Under the pieces are notes generated by a model. It was not told the DNA's origin. It ran no database searches and worked only from the letters and a program-made list of their open reading frames with translations. The translations under genes were made by a program, and so were the position numbers. Shown here in pieces: positions 32,317 through 35,554 of a stretch of DNA of 64,000 nucleotides. The stretch's first letter is position 1, and each line of letters opens with the position of its first letter. The stretch covers positions 1 through 64,000 of the IMG/VR virus record IMGVR_UViG_3300021429_002604; one strand, written 5' to 3'. Source of the stretch: a virus.

Positions 32317-33927
32317 ATGGCTGGTTTTGTAGACAATAATAACCCATCTCAGACTCCTGTTGTACAGAGGATAAGGGATTCTGTGAGAAGGATTAGCACT
32401 TTCGGAATGAAGTACGACGACATGGTTATTAGAAATTCCCAGGCAGTTGGGATAACCGAAGCGGCTTTTTTAAACAAAAATAAATCCAATGTCGAGGATG
32501 AGAGTATGTTATGGACTCTTGCCAAACAGGACATCTCTACTAGACAGTTTATTGGATACTTCGACAAGGACTATAAGGGTAAACGTGACTTCCTGAGGAA
32601 GTTTTCACTTAATCCGGAAATTGAATGGGTGCTCGATACCGTGTGCGATGAGGCAATTTCTTATGACCCCTCCAACTTTTTTGCATATCCGGATTTTATA
32701 GATCTTAGCGATATAAATGAAAAACTCAAGGATGATCTATATGAGACCTATAAAAGACTATATGATACCTGGGGATTCTCTGATGATATAACTGCTTGGC
32801 AATATTTCAGACAGTTTATTATTGATGGATTTTTAGCATTTGAGATCATCTATGATGATAAGGGCCAAAATATCATAGGATTTAAAGAACTGGATGCCGT
32901 TACACTTGTACCTAGTGTAGAAAAGCAGATAGATGGATCTTTTGTTAATACGTGGACACAATATCCGCAGGATCCCAAGAGAAAAAGAGTTCTTTACGAT
33001 CCTCAGATCATATACATATCATATGCTAAGGGTAATGCTATCTCAAGAATAAGTTATATTGAGAGATTAATCAGGCCTTATAACATCCTTAGGATAATGG
33101 AGTACACCAGAGTTATCTGGTCAGTAATGAATGCTTCATTTAAATTAAAGATGACAGTTCCTATTGGATCAAAATCACCTCAAAAAGGTATGCAGACCCT
33201 TGGTGAGTTAATGAGCATCTATAAGGAGGATATTGAGCTTAATGACGAGAGCGGGGAGTTAACTATAGATGGTAGGCCAAAAATACAGTTCTATAAGAAT
33301 TATCTAATGCCTTCCGGTGTTAACGGTACTCCAACCATAGAGCCTTTAAACACTGAGGGACCAAATTTAAATGATCCACAGCCTCTAGCATACTTCTTCG
33401 ATAAGTTCATATTGGAATCTAAGGTACCTCCTTCCAGATTTCATAATCCTGATGGTGGAAGTACATCACCTTATTCTAACGGAGCTGAGGGATTGGACAA
33501 GGAGGAGATTAGATTCGCCAAGTTTATATCAAGACTTAGATCAACATTCCAGGAGATTATGGTTAAGCCACTTTGGATACAAATGGTTAAAAAATATCCT
33601 AAGCTTGAAGAGGATTTCTTGTTCAAGAGTCAATTGGGGCTTAATTATTTTTCTGATAATCCATTTAAGTTAAATCAAGAGATGGATATGATGAATAAGA
33701 AAAAAGAAGCCATCACAGCAATGGGAGGATTGGTTGGTGATGAGGATAAACCATATTTCTCTAATGCTTTCCTTATTGAAACCTTCCTGGGTATGTCCAA
33801 ACAGGATATAGATGCAAACAAGGAAGCGATGGAGAGAAAAGAGAAAGAGAAGAAAAAAGCCGAAGAAAAAGGCGGTGAGGAAGAGAAAAAAGAGGGTGAA
33901 GAGGAAGCACCAGCAGTAACACTATAA
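32317..33927 (+). CDS. gp20: Portal protein (gp20-like), copy 1
   Basis: PEIEWVLD.VCDEAI, FRQFIIDG, YIERLIRPYNILRIME, YFFDKFILESKVPPSR, EEIRFAKFISRLR. Confidence 0.92.
   Translation: MAGFVDNNNPSQTPVVQRIRDSVRRISTFGMKYDDMVIRNSQAVGITEAAFLNKNKSNVEDESMLWTLAKQDISTRQFIGYFDKDYKGKRDFLRKFSLNPEIEWVLDTVCDEAISYDPSNFFAYPDFIDLSDINEKLKDDLYETYKRLYDTWGFSDDITAWQYFRQFIIDGFLAFEIIYDDKGQNIIGFKELDAVTLVPSVEKQIDGSFVNTWTQYPQDPKRKRVLYDPQIIYISYAKGNAISRISYIERLIRPYNILRIMEYTRVIWSVMNASFKLKMTVPIGSKSPQKGMQTLGELMSIYKEDIELNDESGELTIDGRPKIQFYKNYLMPSGVNGTPTIEPLNTEGPNLNDPQPLAYFFDKFILESKVPPSRFHNPDGGSTSPYSNGAEGLDKEEIRFAKFISRLRSTFQEIMVKPLWIQMVKKYPKLEEDFLFKSQLGLNYFSDNPFKLNQEMDMMNKKKEAITAMGGLVGDEDKPYFSNAFLIETFLGMSKQDIDANKEAMERKEKEKKKAEEKGGEEEKKEGEEEAPAVTL
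33898..33927 (+). repeat. 30-nt direct repeat (second copy at 35525..35554) encoding EEEAPAVTL-stop
   Basis: gaagaggaagcaccagcagtaacaCtataa versus ...acaTtataa; 29 of 30 bases identical. Confidence 0.95.
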
Positions 33928-33931
33928 TAAA

Positions 33932-35554
33932 ATGGCAGGATTTTTAGATTATTTAAAACCCAATCAATCTGCTCTAGGTAACATTCTAAAAAACCTAGGC
34001 AACATATCAAAATTTGGTATGCAGTATGATGATATGGTTGTGAGAAATTCTCAAGCCATTGGTAAGACTGAGGGATATTTTTTCAATCAGGACGGTACTG
34101 GTTTCACCCAAAATGATGCCTTTTATTGGACTGCTTCGTATCAGGACACTAAGGTAAGAAAATATATCGCTTACTTTGATAGGGATTATATCGAGAAAAG
34201 AAATTACCTTAGAAAATTTTCTCTTAACGGAGAGATTGAATTTATTATCGATACAGTTACCGATGAGTCAATAACTTATGATGATAGAAACTACTTCGCA
34301 CAACCATCTTTTATAAATCTGGATCTTAAGGATAAGATTAAAGATGAGATGTCAACCAATTATAATAGGCTCTATAACGTATTCGGATTTCAGAATAGTG
34401 TACTAGCTTGGCAGTACTTTAAGCAATTCTTGATTGATGGATTTCTAGCTTTTGAAATTATCTATGATAACAAGGGTAAGGAAGTTATAGGATTTAAGGA
34501 ATTAGACCCATCATCTCTTCAGCCCGTTGTTGAAAAAGTCGGTGAAAATGAATATAAACAATTCTGGATCCAGTACCCGCAGAATCCTCAAATGAGCAGG
34601 AAGCTTACAAATGAGCAGGTTATTTATATTTCATATGCTAAGGGTAATAGCGTTTCTAGAGTTAGTTATATCGAAAGACTAGTTAGATCTTATAACATTT
34701 TAAGAATCATGGAAAATTCCAGAGTTATCTGGAATGTGATGAACGCTTCATATAGGCTTAAATTTATTATTCCGATTGGTAGTCAGTCACCTCAGAAAGC
34801 AATGCAAACACTCGGACAACTGATGTCGAATTACAAGGAGGATATTTCAATCAATGATGCTTCGGGTGAATTAACAATTAACGGTAGACCGAAGGTTCAA
34901 TTTTATAAAAATTACCTGTTTCCTGAAAAGGATGGGCAATCACCAACTATCGAGTCTCTAAACCCAAGCGGTCCTGATTTTAATGTTATGGAGAATGTTT
35001 TATACTTCTTTAATAAACTTAAGATGGATTCAAAAATTCCTTATGCTAGATTTGCTTCCAAAAACGGAACACCAGCAAACTATCAGATTTCTATAGATCA
35101 GTTAGAAAGGGACGAAATTAGATTTGAAAAGTTCCTTAGAAGGCTAAGATCGATATTCCAAGAAATACTCGTTAAACCACTTTATTTACAAATGTGTCTG
35201 GATCATCCGGAGCTATCTAGAGATAAAAGCTTTAAAGCAAATATCGGACTTAATTACTATCGTGATAGCGAATTTGAGGAGATGGTGGAGATGTCGGGCT
35301 TTACAAAAAGAAGCGAATTCATAAAAGGACTAGGCGAACTTAAAGTAAAAGCTGGCGAGGAAGAAAAAGCATATTTTGATAACGACTTCCTAATACAGAG
35401 ATATCTGGGTATGAATCCTGATCAGATTAAAATGAATCAGAAGTACAAGGAAAAAGAAGCTAAAGCAGCAGAGAAAACTAAAGGCGGAGCGGAAGGTGAA
35501 GCCGGCGGAGAGGAAGCAGCAGGAGAAGAGGAAGCACCAGCAGTAACATTATAA
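33932..35554 (+). CDS. gp20: Portal protein (gp20-like), copy 2
   Basis: GEIEFIIDTVTDE, FKQFLIDG, YIERLVRSYNILRIME, YFFNKLKMDSKIPYAR, DEIRFEKFLRRLR. Confidence 0.92.
   Translation: MAGFLDYLKPNQSALGNILKNLGNISKFGMQYDDMVVRNSQAIGKTEGYFFNQDGTGFTQNDAFYWTASYQDTKVRKYIAYFDRDYIEKRNYLRKFSLNGEIEFIIDTVTDESITYDDRNYFAQPSFINLDLKDKIKDEMSTNYNRLYNVFGFQNSVLAWQYFKQFLIDGFLAFEIIYDNKGKEVIGFKELDPSSLQPVVEKVGENEYKQFWIQYPQNPQMSRKLTNEQVIYISYAKGNSVSRVSYIERLVRSYNILRIMENSRVIWNVMNASYRLKFIIPIGSQSPQKAMQTLGQLMSNYKEDISINDASGELTINGRPKVQFYKNYLFPEKDGQSPTIESLNPSGPDFNVMENVLYFFNKLKMDSKIPYARFASKNGTPANYQISIDQLERDEIRFEKFLRRLRSIFQEILVKPLYLQMCLDHPELSRDKSFKANIGLNYYRDSEFEEMVEMSGFTKRSEFIKGLGELKVKAGEEEKAYFDNDFLIQRYLGMNPDQIKMNQKYKEKEAKAAEKTKGGAEGEAGGEEAAGEEEAPAVTL

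Follow-up and report, generated by a model that had tools for sequence, protein, structure and literature searches.

A 64,000-nt stretch of viral DNA (hereafter the window; positions 1 to 64,000 of IMG/VR record IMGVR_UViG_3300021429_002604, a 127-kb fragment with a CheckV completeness of 46%) encodes two tandem portal proteins of the T4 gp20 family, here called A and B. The portal initiates the assembly of the head, bears the packaging motor and forms the joint with the tail, and to our knowledge every characterised portal of a tailed phage or herpesvirus is a homododecamer made from one gene. At this locus, both open reading frames (ORFs) were intact on the + strand and lay 4 nt apart; their products, of 536 and 540 aa, shared 53% identity across 506 aa. 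The original prediction of two real, full-length and diverged gp20-like genes was borne out by family matches that ran from end to end of the profile: PF07230 (Portal_T4; cut-off, 22.9 bits) was matched by A with an E value of 7e-58 and 196.8 bits over profile positions 9-432 of 433, and by B with an E value of 9e-67 and 226.2 bits over positions 4-433. Both proteins also matched the portal family PHROG 213. At the level of known structures, residues 94-511 of B aligned with T4 gp20 structure 3JA7 (E 1.5e-22), and residues 244-517 of A aligned with structures 9LU6, 6UZC and 3JA7 (about E 1e-13). AlphaFold2 monomer models of the two proteins had mean predicted local distance difference test (pLDDT) scores of 56 and 59; in these models, the wing and crown helices were confident and the stem and clip fell below 50.

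An assembly artefact is excluded as the source of the pair, because contigs from two other studies matched the window with 0 differences over positions 32286-34325 and 32205-34512, that is, across gene A, the end of A, the junction and the start of B. The end of B was covered by a further contig (35492-36553), and independent IMG/VR assemblies that were 97-99% identical carried the same C-terminal tails on both genes. In at least 14 DNA runs from freshwater, rivers and lakes, no less than half of the words sampled from this stretch were present. Contigs from the RNA libraries of two studies were also found on both genes, as weak evidence of co-expression; none of them bridges A and B, and DNA carry-over is possible. 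A megablast search against sequenced phages returned no match, and that collection contains no cultured relative.

Distribution, age and constraint of the portal pair

Scans of IMG/VR with A and with B identified 156 loci, which were reduced to 75 distinct pairs, and 51 non-redundant pairs were placed in a tree. The A-B pair was present at every locus with room for both genes (75 of 75 distinct loci), so it is no recent duplicate; the order was always A then B, with 1-23 nt between them. Those loci that seemed to encode a single portal (L063, L064, L097, L133, L138, L142 and L150) were all cut by contig ends. Orthologs in the related loci were 68-99% identical to A and 67-99% identical to B. 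In the maximum-likelihood tree of the 51 pairs and outgroups, A and B were reciprocally monophyletic (Shimodaira-Hasegawa-like approximate likelihood ratio test [SH-aLRT] support of 100 each) and together formed one clade (SH-aLRT, 99); the stems of the two clades were 0.44 and 0.45 in length, and their topologies mirrored one another. Reciprocal monophyly, near-equal stems and mirrored topologies together point to one ancient tandem duplication, which took place at the root of a large freshwater clade of huge, uncultured phages (genomes of 270-434 kb) and both products of which have been kept since.

Five complete relatives (270-434 kb, two of them with terminal repeats) each encoded exactly two PF07230 portal genes, along with a single S77 protease-scaffold gene and a single full-length gp23-type major capsid protein (MCP). 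The sister lineage LR756500 (462 kb) and five relatives of it had a single portal each, and such outgroup portals were slightly nearer to B (46-48% identity) than to A (43-44%). Among 2219 sequenced phage records with a gp20-like match, a second, partial match was seen in one genome only, which is filed twice. LR756501, a 735-kb phage that is locus L166 of our set, encodes a 342-aa partial portal-like ORF (record positions 142317-142826) about 70 kb from its full portal, and this ORF matches only portal residues 74-266, in the wing. Literature searches for dual, duplicated or heteromeric phage portals found no relevant paper, and a comparative review of jumbo phages mentions a single gp20 ortholog only.

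Neither copy is decaying or under relaxed selection. The median ratio of nonsynonymous to synonymous substitution (dN/dS; pairwise Nei-Gojobori estimates between orthologs) was 0.015 for A and 0.016 for B, branch lengths were symmetric, the pair was found in every related locus, and conservation domain by domain was equal in A and B, with no domain lost or relaxed in either.

Where A and B do differ was mapped by fixed differences, defined as alignment columns in which A and B are each conserved to at least 90% yet differ from one another. There were 32 of these, 22 of which fell in B residues 251-392, a span that by alignment to T4 gp20 corresponds to stem helix alpha5, the clip, stem helix alpha7 and the tunnel loop (T4 domain limits from PMC4493910, mapped via the alignment of B to 3JA7). 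In T4 gp20, subunits share a main-chain beta-sheet only in the clip, the tunnel loops contact neighbouring subunits and influence ring number, and the tip of the clip binds the terminase gp17 (PMC4493910). In our alignment and consensus sequences, the residues of this terminase-binding tip were nearly alike in A and B, a likeness that fits two proteins which would face the same external partners.

Shared C-terminal tails

A and B end in the same 10 residues, GEEEAPAVTL, and the last 30 nt of the two genes, including the stop codon, were identical at 29 positions, the single difference being CTA versus TTA, both encoding Leu. The original prediction of a charged linker followed by EEEAPAVTL on both genes was thus confirmed, with the additions that the shared peptide extends to the preceding G and that the linkers, though both charged and of low complexity, differ in sequence (that of A is K/E-rich, that of B A/G/E-rich). 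In the AlphaFold2 models, the last helix spans residues 495-518 of A and 496-517 of B, and the residues beyond it (519-536 and 518-540) had pLDDT values of about 30 and 28; both tails are accordingly modeled as disordered. No other xVTL ending was found in the 127-kb record besides those of the two portals.

Tails of this kind are not confined to the pair. The crown of T4 gp20 is located within the capsid and ends in eight disordered residues (PMC4493910). The C-terminal end of T4 gp20 is ..EEESKEARFQDPDQEQEDF (..QEQEDF), and the single-portal outgroups have low-complexity linkers ending in ..SGY, ..APTF, ..NFDF and ..DLGL. Because T4 gp20 and these outgroups end likewise, a flexible and for the most part acidic tail whose last residue is hydrophobic looks ancestral and would predate the duplication; it is no novelty of this pair. 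Within the clade, the end [V/F/I]-T-[L/I] was found on B in 46 of 51 lineages and on A in 32. In a basal subclade of 15 genomes, A ends Pro/Glu-rich (..PPQE, ..PPAEA) and B ends in xFTL; a Pro-rich A tail also occurs in a nested group (L008, L012 and L015), behind which no remnant of a VTL end was found in any frame. As a separate observation, the A proteins of L008, L012, L013 and L015 are longer, and their Pro/Glu-rich end (..ETPPAT) resembles the A tails of the distant basal subclade, which suggests either replacement of the tail by recombination between phages or convergence.

Tail variants matched within genomes: PAVTL ends both proteins here, and elsewhere PEVTL, PPQVTL, PAVTI or TATL was found on A and B alike. 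In 22 of 36 genomes, the two paralogs were closer to each other in their last 9 residues than orthologs were between that genome and the nearest distinct lineage, whereas the cores were 53% identical between paralogs and 79-96% between those orthologs. By independent contrasts, changes in B followed those in A about 12 times and ran opposite to them about 2 times (summed over 7 positions that are not mutually independent). The constraint is on the peptide rather than on the DNA, because codons vary freely between lineages.

Traces at the DNA level were found in some genomes. Tail codons were identical at 8 of 10 positions in the genome studied here, against a core background of 0.44 (binomial p ~0.02, uncorrected), and at 9 of 9 in L042, which also had an exact run of 37 nt in the otherwise unconserved linker; in L039 and L042, 49-52 of 63 nt were identical at the tail region, inside the linker (52 of 63 in L039). 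An exact run of 24 nt was the longest match between A and B in the present genome. As a sign of conversion this run is only suggestive, because related genomes have runs as long (20-44 nt) in conserved core motifs too, where conserved residues combine with strong codon bias. In our reading, the concerted evolution of the tails would reflect two processes, selection that favours a common end motif and, now and then, a short conversion tract at the 3' end of the genes; the earlier proposal that selection or gene conversion keeps the tails alike is supported to that extent, by co-variation within genomes and by conversion tracts in some lineages. Separately, L124 and L041 had exact A/B matches of 44 nt and 36 nt in a conserved wing motif (WQYFRQF..DGFLAFEIIYD), which may be further micro-conversion tracts.

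Genomic setting

The portal genes lie among head, neck and packaging genes, and the large terminase subunit (TerL), tail sheath, tail tube, S77 protease and gp23-type MCP are encoded in the same window (Table 1). Synteny of the head-closure-like gene was kept in relatives and outgroups, and the gp2-like gene held the same position in relatives and in Tenacibaculum phage PTm1. A scan of the spacer between A and B found no terminator- or promoter-like site; scans for sigma-70-type promoters and terminators returned hits at shuffle level only, and the T4 late promoter TATAAATA was discarded as a candidate, with no enrichment in the window and no occurrence upstream of the portals.

Table 1. Features of the portal locus and of related structural genes, in window coordinates
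Feature	Position	Strand	Evidence
Large terminase subunit, external partner of the portal clip	13210..15033	+	PHROG 5989, E 1e-53
Head-closure / head-completion nuclease-like gene	31195..31680	+	PHROG 218 head closure, E 9e-48; Pfam TnsA-like endonuclease N-terminal domain
gp2-like DNA end protector, directly upstream of A	31680..32282	+	PHROG 429, E 9e-6
Portal paralog A, T4 gp20 family, 536 aa	32317..33927	+	ORF, PF07230, PDB matches, orthologs, dN/dS
K/E-rich low-complexity linker of A, after last crown helix	33820..33897	+	Translation, AlphaFold2 model
Tail of A, EEEAPAVTL plus stop	33898..33927	+	29/30 nt identity with B tail; independent contigs
Spacer, stop of A to start of B, 4 nt	33928..33931	+	Sequence TAA-TAAA-ATG
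Portal paralog B, T4 gp20 family, 540 aa	33932..35554	+	ORF, PF07230, 3JA7, orthologs, dN/dS
A/G/E-rich low-complexity linker of B	35438..35524	+	Translation, AlphaFold2 model
Tail of B, EEEAPAVTL plus stop	35525..35554	+	Independent contig 35492-36553
Prohead protease (S77) fused with long scaffold-like part	47352..49301	+	PF03420, 29 bits
Major capsid protein, gp23 family	49331..51052	+	PF07068, E 9e-41

Several other features, most of them in the window, are recorded here in their own right. Two sigma-factor-like genes were identified on the + strand, one at 23206-23814 with matches to RNA polymerase sigma families and one at 30827-31186 resembling the gp55-like late sigma factor. Between an 843-aa gene and the latter, 1.5 kb upstream of the portals, a perfect hairpin of 12-13 bp with T-runs on both strands (30737-30765) resembles a bidirectional terminator. 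Directly after portal B lies a PfkB-family carbohydrate kinase gene (35574-36551, + strand; Pfam E 1e-29), the position of which is not kept in all relatives; by eye, the N terminus of its product resembles heptose-phosphate kinases, and the gene may be an auxiliary one for sugar metabolism. Two tandem tail-tube-like paralogs, 56% identical, directly follow the sheath gene (18516-19070 and 19085-19660, + strand; PHROG 32623 and tail-tube families) and are, after the portals, the second case in this genome of a ring- or tube-forming structural gene duplicated in tandem. A further tandem pair of paralogs (3485-4276 and 4276-5040, + strand; 42% identity over 255 aa) was without a family match. 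In G000, positions 104797-114086 (locus L170, 797-10086) encode four paralogous genes of 513-909 aa with tail-fibre-like N termini, one of which ends in ..GGSGGSFTI.

A possible mixed portal ring

The dual portal suggests a DNA-entry ring composed of two subunit types. The original note put forward such a heteromeric portal or, alternatively, two specialised vertices, and both arrangements stay predictions. We put at about even the chance that A and B, made together from one transcript (as the 4-nt spacer without a terminator would allow), are co-assembled into a single hetero-oligomeric ring at the one portal vertex, most simply with six copies of each in alternation. In T4-type assembly, a single portal starts each head (PMC4493910), and co-assembly would therefore be the simplest way for both proteins to be needed. 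In such a ring, the fixed differences would lie mainly in the stem, clip and tunnel loop, the parts by which T4 subunits touch one another, and the clip tip presented to the terminase would be kept nearly alike. Beyond the last crown helix, each subunit would extend a disordered charged linker of about 20-35 residues and a short hydrophobic C terminus, which by its T4 position should point to the capsid interior and could bind there, while the prohead is being built, to an internal partner that is most likely the scaffold or core; a candidate for that partner is the protease-scaffold protein (47352-49301). A more specific version, in which the portal is an obligate two-subunit ring (e.g., alternating A6B6, with C6 rather than C12 symmetry) and the internal acidic tails are a shared docking signal for the scaffold core, is more tentative and falls somewhat short of an even chance.

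Several results weigh against a mixed ring with shared docking tails. Two separate homomeric assemblies would account for the equal constraint and the tight linkage just as well, and the fixed A/B differences were mostly conservative, with no obvious charge swap that would force alternation. In 19 of 51 lineages, A has a Pro/Glu-rich end without [V/F/I]-T-[L/I], and the tails of A and B disagree in L025, L027, L030, L140, L048 and L049, so any tail partner can do without the motif on one of the subunits. The two copies need not have identical tails, the EEEAPAVTL identity seen here being one state among those observed. Across all genomes, the fraction of identical codons at shared residues was 0.57 in shared tails and 0.52 in the core; given so weak a synonymous excess, recent conversion is not general, and co-selection and old conversion are inseparable. 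The gene downstream of B was rejected as a tail partner, as it encodes a PfkB sugar kinase and no head protein and is not syntenic in all relatives.

A PDZ-type reader of the hydrophobic C terminus was sought by way of PF13180, which was absent from the five complete relatives (other PDZ families were not searched), and a prediction of the complex of A residues 83-515 with B residues 83-517, run with an alignment of 46 rows for each and without controls, scored 0.02 against a mark of 0.32 and counts neither way.

Of the alternatives to a mixed ring, the one to be taken most seriously, though we regard it as unlikely, is that A and B build two separate homododecamers with different jobs, either in two particle types or with a second ring stacked on the portal or placed at another vertex. 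A and B do keep every portal domain under equal constraint, their clip and stem differences could equally tune each ring to a different partner, and the divergent end of A in 19 of 51 lineages would suit a set of partners that is not wholly shared with B. However, with one portal per T4-type head, this arrangement would imply two particle types without evident benefit; the terminase-binding residues of the clip tip are nearly the same in both proteins, and no other head or neck ring component was seen to be likewise duplicated (one protease-scaffold, one full MCP). It is less probable again that one paralog is the virion portal and the other has an accessory, non-virion role for the portal fold, such as an assembly initiator, a chaperone ring, or a ring for docking to the membrane or nucleoid. 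Strong constraint on both copies says nothing on the site of action, and a division of this kind could be read into B being slightly nearer to the single-copy outgroup portals and keeping the ancestral tail type while the A tail varies; symmetric rates, domain-wise conservation with no domain lost or relaxed, and the retention of both clip tip and tunnel loop in A and B all argue the other way.

Host defence offers a further alternative, since some bacterial defence sensors (Avs-type systems) recognise portal proteins: the pair might be a redundancy or decoy, in which two diverged copies split the risk of sensing and the second either escapes or titrates the sensor. A decoy or escape copy would be expected to evolve fast or to be lost often, yet dN/dS is about 0.015 here and the pair is kept in 51 of 51 lineages, which makes this explanation very improbable. 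More doubtful still is that the identical tail arose by chance of composition or as an artefact of assembly, without biological meaning. In an AT-rich genome with strong codon bias, identical peptides often give long DNA runs (the 20-44 nt of the core motifs), and the codon test for this genome alone gave p ~0.02. Both tails were, however, reproduced by independent assemblies and contigs, and the contigs refute the artefact part outright; the tail varies between lineages and yet matches within genomes in many independent lineages, against what chance would produce.

A constrained pair found throughout a clade whose phages are abundant in rivers and lakes raises the question of whether a portal ring can become heteromeric after duplication, as many cellular rings have. 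If A and B do share a ring, theirs would be the first portal of tailed phages or herpes-like viruses known to be heteromeric, and its symmetry mismatch with both the pentameric terminase and the five-fold vertex would need reconsideration. The acidic flexible tail with a hydrophobic last residue, for its part, seems to be an old and little-studied feature of gp20-type portals, which here evolves in concert between paralogs.

Among known systems, the closest is T4 gp20 itself (PF07230; structures 3JA7, 6UZC, 9MKB and 9LU6/9LU7), which A and B match across the wing, stem, clip and crown; the neighbouring genes are T4-like as well (gp2-like, head-completion, TerL, sheath, tube, S77 protease and gp23-type MCP). 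A and B share with it the disordered acidic tail and hydrophobic last residue (T4 side from PMC4493910); however, the tails described here exceed that of T4 by about 15 residues and have [V/F/I]-T-[L/I] in place of ..EDF at the end, and T4 has one portal gene, as do 2217 of the 2219 phage records, in contrast to two diverged paralogs throughout the present clade. The nearest sequenced portals (34-48% identity) are those of LR756500 (462 kb), LR756504, LR756501 and the Lak megaphages, which likewise have huge genomes and low-complexity C-terminal tails but encode one full-length portal each. T4-type phages also provide structural paralogs, gp23/gp24 and gp19/gp3/gp48/gp54, in which the duplicate was kept because each copy took up its own place in one assembly; these occupy different sites (hexamers versus pentamers, the tube versus its ends), whereas a shared ring is only predicted for A and B, and we know of no such site split for any portal ring.

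Outside phage heads, hetero-rings that arose by duplication (proteasome alpha/beta, CCT, MCM2-7 and the paralogs of the V-ATPase c-ring) resemble the A-B pair in that a ring-former was duplicated, both copies are constrained and the differences fall in contact regions; the pair may work like them, but co-assembly has been demonstrated for those rings, whereas for A and B it is predicted. Acidic docking tails with a hydrophobic tip are exemplified by Escherichia coli SSB (..DDDIPF) and by T7 gp2.5, with its C-terminal Phe. By analogy, the portal tails would resemble these in having a disordered acidic linker and a short conserved hydrophobic C terminus, but there is no homology between them, and SSB and gp2.5 bind replication proteins, whereas the partner of a portal tail would be inside the capsid. 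The concerted evolution of bacterial paralogs by short-tract gene conversion, as in tufA and tufB, is comparable in that a segment is closer between the paralogs of one genome than between orthologs; here, the effect does not reach beyond the last 30-60 nt of genes otherwise 53% identical, with a synonymous signal at background in most lineages.

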